Counted from the stretch's first letter, positions 54,906 to 64,000 are shown. The stretch: 64,000 nt of DNA from Methanomassiliicoccales archaeon (GCA_050010535.1 JBEKKT010000003.1:1374-65373), one strand, 5' to 3'. Notes: generated from the letters alone by a model not told the origin. Made by a program: numbers and translations.

Positions 54906-55343
54906 ATGGACAAGGTCACGAGGATAGGAGTTTCGCTCGAACCAAGGCTTCTGAAGGAATTCGACGACCTCATTGCTGAAAAAAGGTATTCTGCGCGGTC
55001 CGAAGCGATAAGAGACCTTATTCGGGATGCACTCGCGGAGGAGACTTGGGAGAATGAGGAATCGAATGTGGTGGGAACGATCACGCTGTTGTACGAGTAC
55101 GAGAAGGGGGATGTGAGGGAGAGGCTTATTGAAATACAGCACCTCCACCATTCGCAGATATCATCCTCCATGCACATCCATTTGAACACCGAGCAGTGCC
55201 TGGAGGTCCTCGTCGTCTCAGGCAAGGCAGGGGACATGAAGCGGCTGTCCGATGAGCTCCGCAGCGTGCGCGGGGTCCTCCACGGCAAGCTGACCATGAC
55301 CGCCGGGGCAACGGGCACGCATGTGCATGAGGTAACAGATTGA
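54906..55343 (+). CDS. nikR: nickel-responsive transcriptional regulator NikR
   Basis: It has a ribbon-helix-helix N-terminus (RIGVSLEPRLLKEFDDLI..GYSARSEAIRDLIRDAL style). The C-terminal metal domain has HLHHSQ..H.H...C. Confidence 0.88.
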   Translation: MDKVTRIGVSLEPRLLKEFDDLIAEKRYSARSEAIRDLIRDALAEETWENEESNVVGTITLLYEYEKGDVRERLIEIQHLHHSQISSSMHIHLNTEQCLEVLVVSGKAGDMKRLSDELRSVRGVLHGKLTMTAGATGTHVHEVTD

Positions 55344-55449: not shown

Positions 55450-57738
55450 ATGAAGAAGCTTGTCATAAGCGAGAAGGTCAATGCCGCGGTGCGCATCGCC
55501 ACGATGCTCTCAAATGGATCTCTAAAACGGAGGAATCTTGGCGGTGTCCCGGTATTCCATTTAGAGTCCGGCGACGATGAGGTGGACGTGGTAGGTTTGC
55601 GCGGCCACATCCTGGAGCTCGACTACCCCGAGAATCTGAACGACTGGCACAAGGTCGATCCCGCCGATCTCGTTTACGCCGTCCCAGAGAAGCGAGTCGT
55701 GGCAAAGAACATAATAAGCACACTGAAGAAGCTTGCAAGCGAGTGTGACCAGGTCATCATCGCCACCGACTACGACAGAGAGGGGGAACTAATCGGACTT
55801 GAGACCGTCGATCAACTGGGCGTGGACCTTTCGAAGGTCAGTAGGGCCAGGTTTAGTGCGTTGACCAAGCAGGAGATTGACATCGCGTTCTCCTCCCTGA
55901 CCGAGCCAGACAAGAAGCTCGCTGAGTCCGCGGAATGCAGGCAGATAGTCGATCTCGCCTGGGGAGCATCCCTGACGAGATTCATTTCGATCGCCTCAAG
56001 ACAGGTCGGCACGAACTTCCTATCAGTAGGGAGGGTCCAAAGCCCCACTCTGAGTCTCATCGTGGACAGGAACAAGGAGATCGCCGAGTTCATCAAGAAA
56101 CCATACTGGGAAGTACAAGCCAGATTTGAGAAGAACGGCCAGTTCAGCGGTCAGCATCGAGGGAATCCTTTTTGGGAATTGAAGGCGGCTGAGAAGGTTG
56201 TCTCGACATGTGAAGAATCGAAGACAGGGAAGGTCGTGTCATTCAGCAGGGATGCGAGAGACGAGTATCCTCCGCCACCGTTCAACACGACGATGATGCT
56301 CGCTGAGGCGAACAAACTCGGATTCTCGGCAAGCAGGGCAATGAGCGTGGCCGAGGACCTATACACATCTGGATTCACATCCTATCCGAGGACAGATAAT
56401 ACGGTCTACCCGAGATCCCTATCTCTCCGAGGAGTCCTTGAGCAACTCAAGAAGTCTGAGTTCAGCAAGGAAGCGGAGGAGCTGCTCTCGCAGAAGCAGT
56501 TGCGTCCATCGAGAGGAAGAGTGAGGGCGACGGATCATCCTCCGATTTACCCTGTGGAGGGGGCAACAAAGAAGCTGTTGAAGGGGGACAGATGGACGCT
56601 ATATGAATTGATCGCGAGACGATTTATGGCCACGGTCGCCCCTTCTGCCCGTATCGAGCACACGAATTGCTCAGTGTCGGTCGAAGATCAACCTTTTGAT
56701 TCGAAGGGTTACAGGATTCTGTCGCAAGGATGGCGGAGCTACTATCCATACTATCGAGTCTTGGAGATCATCGTGCCTCAGCTTCAGGACGGAGACGAGG
56801 TCACGGTCTTAGACGTGTCCCTCGACAAGAGAGAAACCCAGCCTCCCTCCAGATACTCCCAGGGCACGTTGATTCAAGAGATGGAGAACCTTGGTCTCGG
56901 CACCAAGAGCACAAGGCACGAGATTGTCCAGAAACTCTATGATCGCAACTACGTCCAGGGCGGCAATCTCATTCCAACTCCGAGCGGGGTCGCCGTCGCG
57001 AGCTCACTAGAGAAGCACGCCAACATGATAACGGACAGCAAGATGACCGCCCACCTGGAGAAAGACATGGATGACATAGCCAAGGGCGAGAGTACGCTAG
57101 GGGACGTCGTGAGGGAATCCCAGGACATGCTTTCAGACGTAATCGAGACGATGGGACAGCACAAGGATGAGATTGGAAAGGAAATCAGAAAAGCACTTGA
57201 AGAGCAACAATACGTTGGCATATGCCCAGACTGCGGCGGAAGGCTTAGGATGATGCGGTCGCGGAAAGGTGGCGAGTTCATCGGTTGCTCCAACTACCCA
57301 GATTGCAAGAAGGCCTATCCGAAGCCACGCGGCGCTCTTGTCCAGCCGACCGAAGAAAAGTGCGAGGTGTGCGGTTCTCCGAAGCTGAGGGTCATCAGGA
57401 GGGGGCAGCCCCCACTCATTCACTGCGTAGACCCTGACTGTGAGAGCAACAAGAGGATGACCTCGATAGGGAAGTGCCCGAAATGCGGGAGCGAACTGCG
57501 CATAATTTATTCCAAGGCGGGGAAGCGGTTTATCGGATGCTCGAACTATCCAAAATGCAGGAAAACATACCCGCTTCCGCAGAGAGGAAGGATTAGCGTC
57601 TTGAACGAATCCTGCAATGCGTGCGGGGCCCCGATGATCGAGGTGAGGAATGGCGGGCGTTCCTGGCGACTGTGCGTCGACATGGAATGTGCTTCGAAGA
57701 AGAATGGGACAGCAAGGACCGGGAAGAGTCAGAAGTAG
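55450..57738 (+). CDS. topA: DNA topoisomerase I (type IA) with C-terminal zinc ribbons
   Basis: The Toprim motif IIATDYDREGE is present, with the catalytic Tyr region SGFTSYPRTDN. At least four C4 zinc-finger repeats follow (CPDCGG..C..C, CEVCGS, CPKCGS, CNACGA). Length is 762 aa. Confidence 0.93.
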   Translation: MKKLVISEKVNAAVRIATMLSNGSLKRRNLGGVPVFHLESGDDEVDVVGLRGHILELDYPENLNDWHKVDPADLVYAVPEKRVVAKNIISTLKKLASECDQVIIATDYDREGELIGLETVDQLGVDLSKVSRARFSALTKQEIDIAFSSLTEPDKKLAESAECRQIVDLAWGASLTRFISIASRQVGTNFLSVGRVQSPTLSLIVDRNKEIAEFIKKPYWEVQARFEKNGQFSGQHRGNPFWELKAAEKVVSTCEESKTGKVVSFSRDARDEYPPPPFNTTMMLAEANKLGFSASRAMSVAEDLYTSGFTSYPRTDNTVYPRSLSLRGVLEQLKKSEFSKEAEELLSQKQLRPSRGRVRATDHPPIYPVEGATKKLLKGDRWTLYELIARRFMATVAPSARIEHTNCSVSVEDQPFDSKGYRILSQGWRSYYPYYRVLEIIVPQLQDGDEVTVLDVSLDKRETQPPSRYSQGTLIQEMENLGLGTKSTRHEIVQKLYDRNYVQGGNLIPTPSGVAVASSLEKHANMITDSKMTAHLEKDMDDIAKGESTLGDVVRESQDMLSDVIETMGQHKDEIGKEIRKALEEQQYVGICPDCGGRLRMMRSRKGGEFIGCSNYPDCKKAYPKPRGALVQPTEEKCEVCGSPKLRVIRRGQPPLIHCVDPDCESNKRMTSIGKCPKCGSELRIIYSKAGKRFIGCSNYPKCRKTYPLPQRGRISVLNESCNACGAPMIEVRNGGRSWRLCVDMECASKKNGTARTGKSQK

Positions 57739-58015: not shown

Positions 58016-59452
58016 TCACGACGATTTTTCCTCTACGTCCTTGATGATTTCGTTGTAGTACGCGACGTTGTTGATGCATCCCGGGTCCGGAGCCTTGTAG
58101 TTTCCGAAGTAACCGTAAGCACGGGCCCTGCAACCTCCGCAATGGTAGCGGTAGTCGCAACTCCTACAGTTGTCCTCGAGGATGTCCTTGTTGCGAAGTT
58201 CCGCGAACACCTTGTTGTTCCTCCAGATGTCCTCGATGTCGTCTGTGCGGACGTTTCCGACCCTCAGCGGGAAGAAGACGCACGGCTCGATGTTCCCATT
58301 CGCACGTATCGCCATGTAGAAGCGGCCTGCGCCACATCCTCCTATGAACTCCGTGAGACTGAAGAGGCTCCCGTCGACCTGGGGGTTCGAGAAGTGAGTC
58401 GGAACGACCAACGGTCCGCCTTCTCCGCAATTCTGGAGAGCGATCCTAGCATACTGGGGCGCGGTCGTGAGTATCTCAACGTCGGTCTCCTTGAGCTTAT
58501 TGAACAACATGACCAGGAGGTCCTCCCTCTCCTGCGGGGAAAGATCGTTCTCGATGATCAATTTCCCACGTCCGGTTGGGACGAAGTTGTAGACCATGAA
58601 CCAATTGACTCCTAGAGAGTCGCACAGGTCGATTATCTTCGGGATCTGGGTCAGGTTCTTCTTCGTCGCCGTCGTTGCAACGCTAACAAAGAACCCCTCA
58701 GCAACAGCATTCTTGACACCCTGGATGGTCTTGTCGAAGGCACCAGGTATCCCTCTGAAATTGTCGTGAGTAGCCGCATCTGCGCCATCGACGCTTATCT
58801 GCAGATAAGACACGCCGGCTTCTTTCATCCGCCGTGCCTTCTCCTTCGTTATGAGCGTCCCGTTGGTCGCAATCGAGACGTACATACCATGGTCTGCGCC
58901 GCGCCTGGCTATATCTAGTATGTCAGGGCGGACCAGGGGCTCACCACCAGACAAAGCGAGTACTGGAATGCCCATAGTAGCGAGTTTGTCGACGACTCTC
59001 AAGGCCTCTTCGTGCGTTAGCTCGTCCCCGCTGACCTTTCCTGCCTGGGCGTAACAGTGCTGGCATTTGAGGTTGCACGCATTGGTTACATCCCATACGA
59101 CCTGGAATGGGGCACCAGGAACGAACGGCTTTTTGACCCCGAAGTCCGCTATTCCTTTGACCACGCAAGAAAGACCTTTGCGCCAGTAGGGATTCTTGAA
59201 AGTCTTCTTCATCTCCTCTTCGGTCACCCCAAAGGACTTCGCGCCCCTTTTCAGGATCGATGCCAGAGGTTTCTTGGCGATCTTGCAATACGTGCAAGCG
59301 TCATCCCTCTCGCCAACATAGAGCTCAAGGGCGACCTCCAGTCGGTTCTTCTTATCGGTCTCGCAATACTTGCTCATCCCCGAAAGCACCTTACGAGTGA
59401 CAGGGTTCCCGATCATCGTTTTTAGGACCTGTACACTTGTGCCAGTCTTCAT
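58016..59452 (-). CDS. radical SAM/SPASM domain protein with a ~110-aa Cys-containing N-terminal extension
   Basis: It has VWDVTNACNLKCQHCYA (CxxxCxxC), NFVPTGRG and a canonical SPASM end (GGCGAGRFYMAIRANGNIEPCVF...CRSCDYRYHCGGCRARAY...DPGC). The N-terminal region has CETD...CTYC. Length is 478 aa. Confidence 0.85.
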   Translation of the reverse strand: MKTGTSVQVLKTMIGNPVTRKVLSGMSKYCETDKKNRLEVALELYVGERDDACTYCKIAKKPLASILKRGAKSFGVTEEEMKKTFKNPYWRKGLSCVVKGIADFGVKKPFVPGAPFQVVWDVTNACNLKCQHCYAQAGKVSGDELTHEEALRVVDKLATMGIPVLALSGGEPLVRPDILDIARRGADHGMYVSIATNGTLITKEKARRMKEAGVSYLQISVDGADAATHDNFRGIPGAFDKTIQGVKNAVAEGFFVSVATTATKKNLTQIPKIIDLCDSLGVNWFMVYNFVPTGRGKLIIENDLSPQEREDLLVMLFNKLKETDVEILTTAPQYARIALQNCGEGGPLVVPTHFSNPQVDGSLFSLTEFIGGCGAGRFYMAIRANGNIEPCVFFPLRVGNVRTDDIEDIWRNNKVFAELRNKDILEDNCRSCDYRYHCGGCRARAYGYFGNYKAPDPGCINNVAYYNEIIKDVEEKSS

Positions 59453-59711: not shown

Positions 59712-60170
59712 TCAATGAGTCTCATGCTGATCTTCATGAGCATGTTCGCGCACATGCTCATGTTCGTGCTCATGCTCGACGGCCAGATCTTCGATCTCGA
59801 CGAAGGAATCTGTGCCCGCCAGAACGGTATCCGAAGCCCGTACCACGACATCCTCAATCTTAGACCTATCAAGCCCATAGACCAACACATTGAGCACAAG
59901 GTCCAGACGGCGGGCCTCTCCTCCAAATTCGCCCTTGCATCTCACCTTCCCGCTCGAATCAGTAGCGCTGCAGGTGACAAACCCTCCCTTGCCAGCTTCC
60001 GCGATGCACTTTATGTGGCCGACCAGAGTCGCCCCTGCCTCACCACAACCTATGGCCGTCGTTGACATGAAGTCCTGCGCCAGCTGCCGGAGTTCGGTCG
60101 CGCTTCTTGGCCTCTTGAAGCGGGCATGAATCCGACCGGCATACGCGGCGAAGTCAGGCGTGTACATCAT
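59712..60170 (-). CDS. CobW_C-like protein with a His/Glu-rich C-terminal tail
   Basis: The 152-aa ORF ends in EHEHEHEHVREHAHEDQHETH. The body (GHIKCIAEAGKGG...RLDLVLNVLVYGLDRSKIEDVV) resembles the C-terminal domain of COG0523 proteins. Its ATG overlaps the stop of the upstream GTPase gene (ATGATG/TGA). Confidence 0.6.
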   Translation of the reverse strand: MMYTPDFAAYAGRIHARFKRPRSATELRQLAQDFMSTTAIGCGEAGATLVGHIKCIAEAGKGGFVTCSATDSSGKVRCKGEFGGEARRLDLVLNVLVYGLDRSKIEDVVVRASDTVLAGTDSFVEIEDLAVEHEHEHEHVREHAHEDQHETH

Positions 60171-60763
60171 TTCACCAGCAAGTCGACAACCTTGTCGAGG
60201 TTCGTTCCCTCAGTCGCCGAGGCCGCGACTATGCTACCAGACACGTGAAGATTCCTGAGAGCTCTCTCAATATCCTTGACAGCGAGGTCGTCGACCTCAT
60301 CGATCTTGTTAATTATTACGACATCCGCGGCCTTAACCTGTGCCTTCAGAGGTCTTTCCAGCGCCTTCACGAGTACTGAGAACCGAACAGAATCTACTAT
60401 TACGACTGTCTTCGTCTTCGCTACCGGGGGGCCCGTGTAGTAGCCCAGAGAGTTCAAGATGCTCTGGGGATCCGCTATCCCAGTAGGCTCGACGATGACG
60501 ATGTCCGGCTTGAAATTCTCTGCGACCTGTTTCAAAGTCTGGATGAAATCTGGACCAAGAGTGCAACAGATGCAGCCGCTGGAGAGCTCCTGCACCTTCA
60601 GGCCGTACTTATCCATCACCTTGCCATCAATGCCAATCTTCCCAAAATCGTTGACTATTATGGCGACCTTCTTGTTTGATTTCCCAATAAGCTTTCCTAT
60701 TGTCGAAAGAATCATCGTTGTTTTTCCAGAGCCTAGGAATCCTGCAATCACCAATACGTCCAT
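60167..60763 (-). CDS. COG0523 (CobW/YjiA-type) G3E GTPase, GTPase domain only
   Basis: It has Walker A (GFLGSGKTT), the metal-binding GCICCTL (CxCC), EPTGIADP, and NKID. At 198 aa it lacks the usual C-terminal domain. Confidence 0.85.
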   Translation of the reverse strand: MDVLVIAGFLGSGKTTMILSTIGKLIGKSNKKVAIIVNDFGKIGIDGKVMDKYGLKVQELSSGCICCTLGPDFIQTLKQVAENFKPDIVIVEPTGIADPQSILNSLGYYTGPPVAKTKTVVIVDSVRFSVLVKALERPLKAQVKAADVVIINKIDEVDDLAVKDIERALRNLHVSGSIVAASATEGTNLDKVVDLLVK

Positions 60764-61035: not shown

Positions 61036-61674
61036 CTACTGCACCCCCAGAGCTCTCTTTATGACATCAGCGCCTTCAAAGGCATTCTTGCCGTACAGGT
61101 CTCCTCCGATCTCCTTGACATAAGTCTTGTCGACCGGAGCTCCACCGCAAATTACCTTCACTTCCCCTCGAATCCCGTCCTCTACAAGCCGGTCGATCAC
61201 TTTCTTCAAGTTTACCATCGTAGTCGTGATGAGTGTGGACATGCCGATGACGTCCGCACCGGACGACTTCGCCGCTGATGAGAAGGTCGAGGGCTTGACA
61301 TCGTTGCCTAGGTCGACAACGTTGAAGCCGCTAACCTCTAACGCCACACACGCAAGATTCTTTCCAAGATCGTGGATGTCCCCTTCGACAGTGCCCATGA
61401 CTGCCGTCCCGATCTTCTTATCAGTCGCTTTGAAGTGAGGCCTCACCATTTCCATCGCTTTCTTGAAAGCGTTCGCAGCAACGATTACGTCGACCAAGAA
61501 GGCCTCGCCTTTCGCGAATCTCTCTCCAATTACGTCCATTCCCGGGGCGAGTCCTTTCTCGATAATTTCGATTGGAGACTTCTTCTCGGCATTCAGGGCC
61601 TTGTCGACGATTGATGTTACAACTTTGACATTGCCAACAATAACCGCATTAGCCAGGTCTCTGTAATTCACCAT
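61036..61674 (-). CDS. cobalamin-binding corrinoid protein (MtaC/MtbC/MttC-like)
   Basis: From ATG 61674 the sequence opens MVNYRDLANAVIVGN, an N-terminal helical cap. The B12-binding DxHxxG motif is GDIHDLGKN, with MSTLITTT and VKVICGGAP. The 61758 start in the track runs through a homopolymer leader and is not favoured. Confidence 0.85.
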   Translation of the reverse strand: MVNYRDLANAVIVGNVKVVTSIVDKALNAEKKSPIEIIEKGLAPGMDVIGERFAKGEAFLVDVIVAANAFKKAMEMVRPHFKATDKKIGTAVMGTVEGDIHDLGKNLACVALEVSGFNVVDLGNDVKPSTFSSAAKSSGADVIGMSTLITTTMVNLKKVIDRLVEDGIRGEVKVICGGAPVDKTYVKEIGGDLYGKNAFEGADVIKRALGVQ

Positions 61675-62126: not shown

Positions 62127-64000
62127 ATGGCGAGAATCAGATTCGAGCCGCTAGGAATTGTCGCTGAAACCCGACAAGGAGAGGAACGTTTGTTCGATGT
62201 CCTGGAGAGAGCGGGAATATCGGTTGAGACCGTTTGCGGCGGCAGAGGAAAATGCGGACGATGCCGAGTGATTGTCCGAGAGGGAACTACTCCTCCGACC
62301 GATGAGGACAGAAAAGCGATATCGAAAGATGATCTTGAAAAGGGATCGCGGCTCGCTTGCGGCATGAGAGTGCATTCCGACATGGTGATAGAGATACCGA
62401 AGGAAAACGCTAGAAACGAACAGGTGATCCTGGAGGATGCAATCGCTAGAACGACGCTCAGTCCGAGAATCAGGAGCTTCGTGCTCTCTGTTCCGCCTCC
62501 TTCCCTTGATTTCCAGGTTGGTGACCTGGAGCGCCTGCAACATGCGCTTTCCAAGCTGACGCAGATCGATTTCCAGGTGTCCATACGGACATTGAGACGA
62601 TTCCCTGCCTTGCTCAGGTCATGTGGGCAGGTCCGCCTTGTGACAAGGGGAGATGAGGTACTCGACATTGTCGCGGATTCTGATGAAAGTCTGTATGGCG
62701 TGGCGGTTGACATAGGTACGACAACTGCAGTTGCTTACTTGATCGACCTTGGCACAGGAGATTGCGTTGCCGTGCATTCGAGGATGAACCCACAGATAGC
62801 CCACGGGGACGACGTGATCTCCAGAATGACATTCGGGCTGAGGAACAGCGAGGGCGCGAAGACACTCCAGAGTCAGATAACAAACTGCGTTGACGAATTG
62901 ATTGGAGAATGCTGTGCGAGCGCCAGCGTTAGCAGGGAGAGAGTGTTCGAGATCGTCGTTGTCGGAAACACTGCCATGCACCACTTGTTCTTTGGTCTCG
63001 ATACTTCAAATCTTGGGCGCTCGCCTTTCGTTCCAGTCGTGGCCGGCCCTATTGAAGTGAAGTCCGCAGAACTCGGAATCACCGTCGGGAATGAAGCCTA
63101 CGTCTACTCCCTCCCAAACGTCGCAGGCTTCGTCGGAGCCGACCACATGGGCGTCCTCCTTGCCTGCCGTCTGTGGGAGTCCGAGGAAGCGCAAATGGCC
63201 ATCGACATCGGGACCAACGGAGAGATATCCGTTGGAGGGGGTTCAGGTGTGGCGAGTACCTCGTGCGCAGCTGGACCCGCGTTTGAGGGGGCGAACATCT
63301 GTTTCGGGATGAGAGCCACTACGGGAGCGATAGACCACCTGTCGATAGATGATGACTTCGAAGTATCCTATACTACAATAAACAACGGAAAGCCTCGCGG
63401 CTTGTGCGGCTCTGCCGTCGTTGACGCCATCTCGGAGATGTTCAGGGTGGGCATCATTAGACCAAACGGCAGGATAAGGAAGGAGATTGAATCCCAGAGA
63501 GTCGGAGTGGTGAATGGCGAGACGCAGTTCGTTCTCGCCACCGGGGAGGAGTCGCTAAACGGAGAAGCCGTGGCAATTACCCAGAAAGACATCGGAGAAG
63601 TGCAGTCAGCAAAGGCGGCCATGTACGCAGGGGCCACGATCCTAATGGAAGAGATGGGAGTGAATCAGGATGATCTGGATGCGATTTTGCTTGCGGGCGC
63701 ATTCGGCAACTACATCTCCCCGAAGAGCGCCATGGGCCTGGGCATATTTCCGGAGGTACCGGTGTCGAAAGTCAAGCAAATCGGGAATGCCGCCGGCTCC
63801 GGGGCGAAGATCGCTCTCCTAAATGAGATTGCGCGAGAAGAGGTGAGACAGCTTGCCAGAAGAATCAAGTTCGTTGAATTGGCGGCCAGACCGGAATTCC
63901 AGGATAGATTCTTTTGTGCGCTGTATATCCCTCACCGCGACACTACCATCTTCCCGACCGTTATGTCGGAAGTCGCTGACATCAACAGAGACAATTGGTC
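62127..64000 (+). CDS. RACo-type corrinoid activation protein (N-terminal 2Fe-2S ferredoxin + ASKHA ATPase, COG3894); 3' end outside the window
   Basis: This ORF is not in the track because it has no stop in the window. My own translation from ATG 62127 begins MARIRFEPLGIVAETRQGEERLFDVLERAGISVETVCGGRGKCGRCRVIV...LACGMRV, a plant-type 2Fe-2S motif. It continues with YGVAVDIGTTTAVAYLIDL, VVVGNTAMHHLFFGL, MAIDIGTNGEI and AGAFGN, and stays open through base 64000. Confidence 0.85.
   Translation, partial: MARIRFEPLGIVAETRQGEERLFDVLERAGISVETVCGGRGKCGRCRVIVREGTTPPTDEDRKAISKDDLEKGSRLACGMRVHSDMVIEIPKENARNEQVILEDAIARTTLSPRIRSFVLSVPPPSLDFQVGDLERLQHALSKLTQIDFQVSIRTLRRFPALLRSCGQVRLVTRGDEVLDIVADSDESLYGVAVDIGTTTAVAYLIDLGTGDCVAVHSRMNPQIAHGDDVISRMTFGLRNSEGAKTLQSQITNCVDELIGECCASASVSRERVFEIVVVGNTAMHHLFFGLDTSNLGRSPFVPVVAGPIEVKSAELGITVGNEAYVYSLPNVAGFVGADHMGVLLACRLWESEEAQMAIDIGTNGEISVGGGSGVASTSCAAGPAFEGANICFGMRATTGAIDHLSIDDDFEVSYTTINNGKPRGLCGSAVVDAISEMFRVGIIRPNGRIRKEIESQRVGVVNGETQFVLATGEESLNGEAVAITQKDIGEVQSAKAAMYAGATILMEEMGVNQDDLDAILLAGAFGNYISPKSAMGLGIFPEVPVSKVKQIGNAAGSGAKIALLNEIAREEVRQLARRIKFVELAARPEFQDRFFCALYIPHRDTTIFPTVMSEVADINRDNW

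Follow-up and report, generated by a model that had tools for sequence, protein, structure and literature searches.

What does a COG0523 metallochaperone do when its GTPase and its C-terminal domain are made by separate genes, and which enzymes does such a pair serve? The question is raised by two overlapping genes at positions 59712-60763 in a stretch of 64,000 nucleotides (nt), hereafter the window, from a Methanomassiliicoccales archaeon (GCA_050010535.1, JBEKKT010000003.1:1374-65373). We consider it likely, on the strength of sequence comparisons, that each of the two genes supplies one half of a metallochaperone belonging to COG0523 subfamily 13 and serving corrinoid methyltransferase systems, with zinc as the favored metal.

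The upstream gene encodes a protein of 198 amino acids (aa) that matched the Pfam cobW model (PF02492) over residues 3-175 with 144.4 bits (cut-off, 20.7; E = 3.6e-42). The protein consists of a complete G3E G domain only, the C-terminal domain being absent from the same polypeptide. The presence of a CxCC motif between G1 and G3 assigns it to COG0523 and sets it apart from HypB, UreG, and MeaB; indeed, its NCBIfam scores place it nearer to ZigA (7e-28) and CobW (3.5e-27) than to HypB (7e-12). The best NCBIfam model was NF041053, which describes a CobW-related selenoprotein of 195 aa that is likewise a stand-alone G domain. The alignment ran from end to end but scored 100 bits, below the cut-off of 180, and the GTPase of the window has cysteine codons in its GCICC motif rather than selenocysteine.

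The downstream open reading frame (ORF) encodes a protein of 152 aa, and its ATG overlaps the TGA of the GTPase gene in a region that reads GGTGAAATGATGTAC, with a Shine-Dalgarno-like GGTGA 3 nt upstream of the ATG. The arrangement of these signals in the sequence appears to be one of translational coupling. When 1.84 billion representatives were searched exhaustively with a profile, 479 relatives (counted as cluster representatives) of the 152-aa protein were found. The majority stand alone, with lengths of 120-160 aa, and several, of 321-342 aa, have a Pfam cobW domain in front and the domain of interest behind. Such natural fusions include P0174, P0210, P0220, P0250, and P0261, and a further 25 were found at metagenome loci. 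The hallmark of the family is the sequence LIGHIK: in an alignment of 125 diverse members of this GHIK family, Lys54 was invariant, and Gly51, His52, Ser68, and Gly99 were each conserved at 90% or more. A first-pass annotation of the window had read the locus as a split COG0523 protein, with a GTPase-only gene that carries the G-protein and CxCC motifs, a separate gene for the tail domain that begins by ATGATG over TGA, and a C-terminus rich in His and Glu. All of these features are there in the sequence (Table 1).

The two-gene layout is widely conserved. In the first homolog search, eight relatives of the 152-aa protein beyond itself were recovered, with 39-82% identity, as stand-alone ORFs of 137-162 aa in which Pfam matched no domain. 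On eight independent metagenome contigs, a 198-aa cobW gene was followed by a gene of the 152-aa type, the two overlapping by 4 nt or abutting. Likewise, in some 30 related genomes every GHIK gene that was fetched lay directly behind a cobW-only ORF of 195-230 aa; the partner gene was of about 140-160 aa in these relatives, and 40 more split loci were found in metagenomes. The stand-alone family is conserved at 40-80% identity and has its own start codon and Shine-Dalgarno-like element. Whether a sequencing error had split a single gene, and whether the linkage of the two genes was conserved at all, had been left as questions by the annotation. Since the same layout recurs in independent contigs and genomes, and in every Methanomassiliicoccales relative found, a sequencing error cannot account for the split, and the linkage is evidently kept across contigs, genomes, and metagenome loci.

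What, then, is the 152-aa protein? It had been said to resemble the C-terminal domain of CobW, a likeness that we find in its place in fused proteins, in the order of its structural elements, and in structure searches, but not in its sequence. Pfam and NCBIfam scans of the protein gave no match (none to CobW_C at E <= 1). The proposed check with a hidden Markov model (HMM) of CobW_C (PF07683; threshold, 22 bits) was also negative for the 125 diverse family members, with no match at E <= 10 among the families listed, and for the natural fused forms, with none at E <= 0.1. A search of the whole assembly of the window with PF07683 gave no match, and a search of PDB sequences with a profile of the family found nothing. 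Matches to DUF2478 were weak and were seen for seven of the 125 members (best E = 0.002). Finally, we compared the alignment of 125 members by hhalign with an alignment of 76 CobW_C sequences built from the canonical COG0523 proteins in loci L100-L164. The comparison gave P = 0.014 over 86 colinear columns, as against 0.016 for a CbiO control and 0.011 for a reversed control, and at this control-level score Lys54 was paired with the Lys of the RxKG motif. Because the score was level with the controls, we claim no sequence homology.

Structure prediction gave a different picture. An AlphaFold2 model of the 152-aa protein, built from 60 sequences, had a predicted local distance difference test (pLDDT) score of 87.6 and a predicted template modeling (pTM) score of 0.80, with a disordered tail. 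Its elements (strand 8-22, helix 24-44, strands 49-59, 63-69, 77-82, and 86-98, helix 102-116, and an extra strand) follow the order beta-alpha-beta-beta-beta-beta-alpha(-beta), which is that of the C-terminal domain of YjiA (beta1-alpha1-beta2-beta3-beta4-beta5-alpha2; PMC11672702). A fused member aligned by sequence with YjiA from the G domain through beta1-alpha1 of the C-terminal domain. When a natural fusion of 331 aa (locus L171) was modeled with AlphaFold2 (pLDDT 86), its top match in the PDB, along the full length of the model, was YjiA, with E = 4e-13 over 363 columns, whereas HypB and UreG matched over the G domain only (205-216 columns, with values of about 1e-9 to 1e-8). Thus, as judged by its position in the fused relatives, the order of its secondary-structure elements, and the Foldseek matches to YjiA, the 152-aa protein appears from the models to be the positional and structural counterpart of the C-terminal domain of COG0523 proteins, that is, of CobW_C, with no detectable membership in PF07683. 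The CobW_C model of Pfam therefore fails to recognize the C-terminal domain for a whole COG0523 clade, with the consequence that annotation pipelines call the partner "hypothetical."

Fused members served as seeds for two scans, which covered 185,579 species genomes and the metagenomes of the Joint Genome Institute (JGI). Among 80 metagenome loci, 40 were split, 25 were fused, and 15 had the GTPase only, many of these last on truncated contigs. A FastTree phylogeny of the G domains, midpoint-rooted and drawn from a sample biased by the route of collection, united all 113 GHIK-linked GTPases in a single clade (support, 0.97) that was separate from 77 long COG0523 proteins of the canonical type. 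Parsimony on this tree called for at least four switches between the split and the fused state. CxCC was retained in 113 of the 113 GHIK-linked G domains and the longer GCxCC in 112 of them. Certain in-order fusions suggested by long open frames at weak genome matches proved to be overlaps of frame with the upstream GTPase gene, and these were discarded. We also observed that the genome of the window has a second COG0523-like gene (L010:1456-2556, contig C1), whose 366-aa product has the motif GCFCC, a G domain that falls inside the GHIK-linked clade, and a fused, highly divergent C-terminal domain (VAHVKLML...LIVNARIV). This domain goes unrecognized by the GHIK HMM (E = 0.36), and Pfam detects only cobW in the protein.

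Both methylotrophic methanogenesis and much anaerobic demethylation are built on corrinoid-dependent methyl transfer, for which RamA and RACo, both reductive activators, are the known helpers. Genes for these processes lie beside the module in both archaea and bacteria, in agreement with the tie to corrinoid-dependent methyl transfer that had been proposed for the window. Neighbors were called with HMMs built in this analysis and applied to stop-to-stop ORFs; matches of the CbiO-like kind may include unrelated ABC ATPases. Next to the 40 split loci we found a URO-D-type (MtaA-like) methyltransferase in 22 cases, a corrinoid protein in 17, RACo or RamA in eight, a hydantoinase/MutL-like ATPase in eight, CbiO/CbiQ-like transporter genes in eight, and DUF1638 in six. 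The most frequent neighbor of the fused form was RACo, which was beside the module at 11 of 25 loci. In Sporomusa aerivorans the gene order is corrinoid protein, GTPase, GHIK protein, RACo; in Halobacteroidaceae and, with the module fused, in a metagenome-assembled genome (MAG) of Nitrososphaeria, a corrinoid protein, a URO-D methyltransferase, and/or RACo is encoded beside it; and in Methanimicrococcus (Methanosarcinales, locus L093) two fused copies adjoin a fusion of corrinoid and URO-D domains. The module was also present in Coriobacteriia, Actinomycetota, and Methanomethylicaceae, where these HMMs detected no corrinoid, URO-D, or RACo neighbor.

Within the Methanomassiliicoccales we distinguish four classes of locus. 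In class I, to which the window belongs, the GTPase and GHIK genes are followed by convergent topA and nikR, and RACo and corrinoid genes lie upstream only in the family of the window. Class II consists of genes for a corrinoid protein, a URO-D protein, the GTPase, the GHIK protein, a small Cys-rich protein, and a hydantoinase-like protein; class III of MtrA/MtrH-like genes, RamA, the GTPase, the GHIK protein, and two URO-D genes; and class IV of MtaB-MtaC, the GTPase, the GHIK protein, and RamA. Classes II-IV thus share their corrinoid, methyltransferase, and RACo or RamA neighbors with the loci of other lineages. With a narrow profile, 401 genomes of the phylum contained the family only in Methanomassiliicoccales. 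A broad profile detected it in 184 of 201 genomes of that order, including 130 of 140 of high quality and all 37 genera, and in none of 143 genomes that belong to different orders of the phylum. Members of the order carry mcrA, as does the genome of the window, together with methyltransferase genes.

Several other genes recur at these loci. A Hydantoinase_A/Hydant_A_N/MutL-like ASKHA protein of about 677 aa (cluster c4) is found beside the pair and URO-D or corrinoid genes in archaea and bacteria (L045, L047, L058, L065, L093, L192, L193, and others); given that MutL is of the glutamate mutase reactivase family, it could be another ATPase for the maintenance of corrinoid enzymes. A Cys-rich protein of about 107 aa with several CxxC motifs (c10; L045, L051, L058, L065, L097, and L098) is encoded directly downstream of the class-II GHIK gene, and a protein of about 103 aa (c12) beside corrinoid genes; neither had a match in Pfam. 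At the bacterial split loci L210, L213-L215, L220, L221, and L229, DUF1638 lies directly upstream of the short GTPase gene and makes up a DUF1638-GTPase-GHIK trio. Lastly, a regulator that by eye resembles the Fur family (c24, for example L073:7819-8217) lies beside CbiO/CbiQ-like transporter genes near class-II pairs, which hints at metal-responsive control.

To what known group does the module belong? In the passages of Haas et al. (2009, BMC Genomics 10:470; PMC2770081) that bear on the matter, the majority of archaeal COG0523 proteins are grouped as "subfamily 13," a set that co-localizes with mtaA, mtaB, mtaC, and ramM and also clusters in this manner in clostridia, and MtaA and MtaB are noted as zinc enzymes. 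The Methanosarcina members MA4382 and MM1072 are, like the GTPase of the window, CxCC-bearing G3E GTPases near genes of the mtaA/mtaB/mtaC/ramA type. The two fused proteins from the Methanosarcinales MAG at L093 fall in the GHIK-linked clade and carry FVGHIKM; that is, they have the GHIK C-terminal domain in fused form. By co-localization with corrinoid methyltransferase genes, then, we identify the module as a probable member of subfamily 13. The window differs in having two coupled genes and a C-terminus rich in His and Glu, and the same passages of that paper describe neither a split form nor a distinct family of C-terminal domains.

The other G3E systems offer partial likenesses. The zinc-linked chaperones YjiA (1NIJ and 4IXM), ZigA, YeiR, and ZNG1 share with our pair the G motifs, CxCC, a two-domain plan, and the order of elements in the C-terminal domain, but each of them is a single polypeptide whose C-terminal domain, unlike the GHIK domain, matches CobW_C, and a His-rich stretch, if they have one, is in the linker and not at the C-terminus as in the window. 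The two-component systems for nickel insertion, UreG/UreE and HypB/HypA-SlyD, resemble the pair in combining a short GTPase with a separate and often His-tailed partner, and they serve as our working model; their partners have other folds and other clients, however, and UreG is without CxCC as such. CobW, the Co(II) chaperone of aerobic B12 synthesis, and MeaB/MMAA, which act on B12-dependent mutases, are G3E GTPases tied to cobalt or B12. CobW differs in having a canonical CobW_C domain and partnering with the CobNST chelatase, and MeaB in lacking CxCC and having another kind of C-terminal dimerization arm.

We propose that the 198-aa protein would be the GTP-driven engine that carries the CxCC metal site, while the 152-aa protein would take the place of the COG0523 C-terminal domain, probably docking onto the G domain as well as the client protein. 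The disordered tail probably captures or buffers a metal ion, a part played for UreG by the His-rich tail of UreE and for HypB by HypA/SlyD, and the binding and hydrolysis of GTP would gate the delivery of this metal to its client. The likeliest cargo would be Zn(II), destined for zinc methyltransferases, namely the MtaA-like MT2 enzymes of the URO-D family and MtaB. We favor zinc because the MT2 and MT1 zinc enzymes are the commonest direct neighbors of the module across the family, because most characterized COG0523 proteins handle zinc, and because CxCC indicates a free metal ion.

The tail of the 152-aa protein, EHEHEHEHVREHAHEDQHETH, contains eight His and eight Asp or Glu residues among its 21 residues. 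Tails rich in His or in His and Cys were found in many class-I members and, in a particularly striking form, in class IV (for example (GHSHDDDRGCGC)n); altogether they were present in 106 of 255 stand-alone family proteins, mostly close kin of the protein from the window; they were scarce among the bacterial split forms (1 of 49) and the fused forms (1 of 27), and many class-I tails are without any His. Such tails are consistent with metal capture and are, by their distribution among the sequences, a lineage-specific addition outside the core of the family. In Methanomethylophilaceae-type loci next to mtaB/mtaC (L070, L072, and L080), the GHIK tails consist of long repeats in which His, Asp, Cys, and Gly abound, such as GHSHDDDRGCGCGGHSHDDDRGCGC, and are far more extreme than the tail in the window.

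The immediate surroundings of the pair are summarized in Table 1. On the minus strand the order is corrinoid protein, GTPase, 152-aa ORF, radical SAM/SPASM protein, and a small gene of the TIGR04076 family, so that the corrinoid and radical SAM/SPASM genes flank the pair upstream and downstream, as annotated. The corrinoid gene, which matched Pfam B12-binding_2 and B12-binding and TIGR02370 (1e-56), is separated by about 272 nt from the GTPase gene. Divergent from it is the RACo gene, with Pfam matches to RACo_C_ter, Raco_middle, RACo_linker, and Fer2. Beyond the end of the window, the first RACo gene is followed by a second paralog (620 aa; L245:3033-4895), with an AsnC-type regulator (L245:2369-3016) between the two; a URO-D family gene (L245:10716-11843) lies at the end of the contig, behind genes for AOR, a flavin reductase, an aminotransferase, and an amidohydrolase. 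The radical SAM/SPASM gene is among the neighbors for which a metal-delivery step had been suggested. Outside one Halobacteroidaceae lineage, it adjoins the module only in f1, the family of the window, and in f5, and we reject it as the client because the linkage is not conserved.

Table 1. Features of the split COG0523 module and of the genes around it, in coordinates of the window
Feature	Position	Strand	Remarks	Basis
GTPase-only COG0523-type G3E gene	60167-60763	minus	198 aa; G-domain half of the module	ORF + Pfam
Walker A/G1 motif GFLGSGKTT	60716-60742	minus	residues 8-16	
GCICC, CxCC metal-binding motif of COG0523	60563-60577	minus	residues 63-67	
EPTG motif (ExxG type)		minus	residues 92-95 of the 198-aa GTPase	
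G4 motif NKID	60299-60310	minus	residues 152-155	
GHIK-domain protein	59712-60170	minus	152 aa; apparent detached counterpart of the COG0523 C-terminal domain	ORF
ATGA stop/start overlap	60167-60170	minus	TGA 60167-60169 over ATG 60168-60170	
GHIK motif, family hallmark	60009-60020	minus	residues 51-54 of the 152-aa protein	
His/Glu-rich C-terminal tail EHEHEHEHVREHAHEDQHETH	59715-59777	minus	residues 132-152; predicted disordered	
Corrinoid (B12-binding) protein, MtbC/MtaC-like	61036-61674	minus	longest ORF extends to 61758; relatives start at Met 61674	
RACo-type reductive activator of corrinoid proteins (2Fe-2S + ASKHA)	62127-63998	plus	runs off the end of the window	
Radical SAM/SPASM protein, AhbD/NirJ-like	58016-59452	minus	downstream of the 152-aa gene	
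topA	55450-57738		convergent to the pair	
nikR	54906-55343		convergent to the pair, two genes away, past topA	

A number of observations weigh against the proposal of a zinc chaperone in two pieces. Homology between the 152-aa protein and CobW_C at the level of sequence was not shown by HMM or hhalign. Also, the Foldseek match of the isolated 152-aa model to YjiA was weak (E = 1.4e-2, probability 0.97, template modeling score 0.37) and stood amid generic alpha/beta sandwiches, so that kinship with CobW_C is not established by that model on its own. The lineage-specific distribution of the His-rich tails implies that they are not essential to the core function of the family. With respect to context, no zinc methyltransferase gene is adjacent to the pair in the window, the nearest URO-D gene being about 8 kb past the RACo genes and behind unrelated genes, and where class I occurs in other families of the order, it is topA and nikR, not corrinoid genes, that are its conserved neighbors. 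The preference for zinc comes only from what is known about the clients and about other members of COG0523, and in the literature we found no functional study of subfamily-13 members.

The chief competitor of the zinc proposal, which we judge to be unlikely, is that the module is a chaperone for cobalt or corrinoid that acts alongside RACo, either in loading or exchanging the corrinoid in the manner of MeaB or in supplying Co(II) in the manner of CobW. Indeed, the direct neighbors in the window are a corrinoid protein and RACo activators rather than a methyltransferase, and it is RACo that most often accompanies the fused forms. Moreover, CobW and MeaB, relatives within the G3E family, act on the B12 pathway or on B12 enzymes. 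Transporter genes of the CbiO/CbiQ-like type occur near class-II loci and among the split loci, as counted above, but the CbiO HMM may catch unrelated ABC ATPases. On the other hand, the conserved CxCC points to a free metal ion and not to a corrinoid, and MeaB has no CxCC; and anaerobes insert cobalt early by means of ATP-independent chelatases, for which no CobW is needed.

We regard as more improbable still the idea that the class-I pair is a nickel chaperone within a NikR-governed system of nickel homeostasis, with a hydrogenase or F430/MCR as client. The idea draws on the position of nikR, two genes off and past topA, in nearly all class-I loci in several families of the order, and on the His-rich tails, which in the pertinent part of the account of Haas et al. 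(PMC2770081) are typical of the nickel chaperones UreE, HypB, CooJ, and SlyD. However, topA and nikR run convergently to the pair, in an order that is probably conserved as backbone synteny; across the wider family, the association is with methyltransferase genes and not with nickel enzymes; the genome of the window has a separate HypB; and His is missing from many class-I tails. Finally, that the split is an artefact of frameshift or assembly, or that a small, unrelated gene, the 152-aa ORF, is found downstream by chance, has next to no likelihood: although the source assembly is a MAG, dozens of independent assemblies show the identical layout, a cobW-only gene always precedes the member of the 152-aa family, and in-frame fusions exist in other lineages.

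Returning to the subfamily-13 metallochaperone, a more far-reaching version of its role can be entertained, though we hold it as a tentative possibility. The GHIK domain might be a distinct and uncatalogued adaptor that replaces CobW_C throughout a whole COG0523 clade, and the pair might be a general factor for the maturation or repair of corrinoid methyltransferase systems. With its invariant His-x-Lys on strand 2 and its conserved Ser on strand 3, the adaptor might gate the loading of a metal or cofactor together with, for instance, RACo/RamA, DUF1638, and the hydantoinase/MutL-like ATPase. If this were true, methylotrophic methanogenesis and acetogenic demethylation would rely on a fourth accessory activity, one that has never been assayed.

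A G3E GTPase beside genes for corrinoid methyl transfer has been on record since 2009 and has never been tested. The module described here is a further example of this known but uncharacterized kind, and what is noteworthy about it is its split architecture, its uncatalogued family of C-terminal domains, and its near-universality in Methanomassiliicoccales. The natural split provides two small proteins that can be expressed separately, so that experiments on binding, metal transfer, and stimulation of the GTPase are straightforward. Finally, its near-universal presence in the genomes of Methanomassiliicoccales, including those of gut species, suggests that the module matters for the production of methane from methanol and methylamines.

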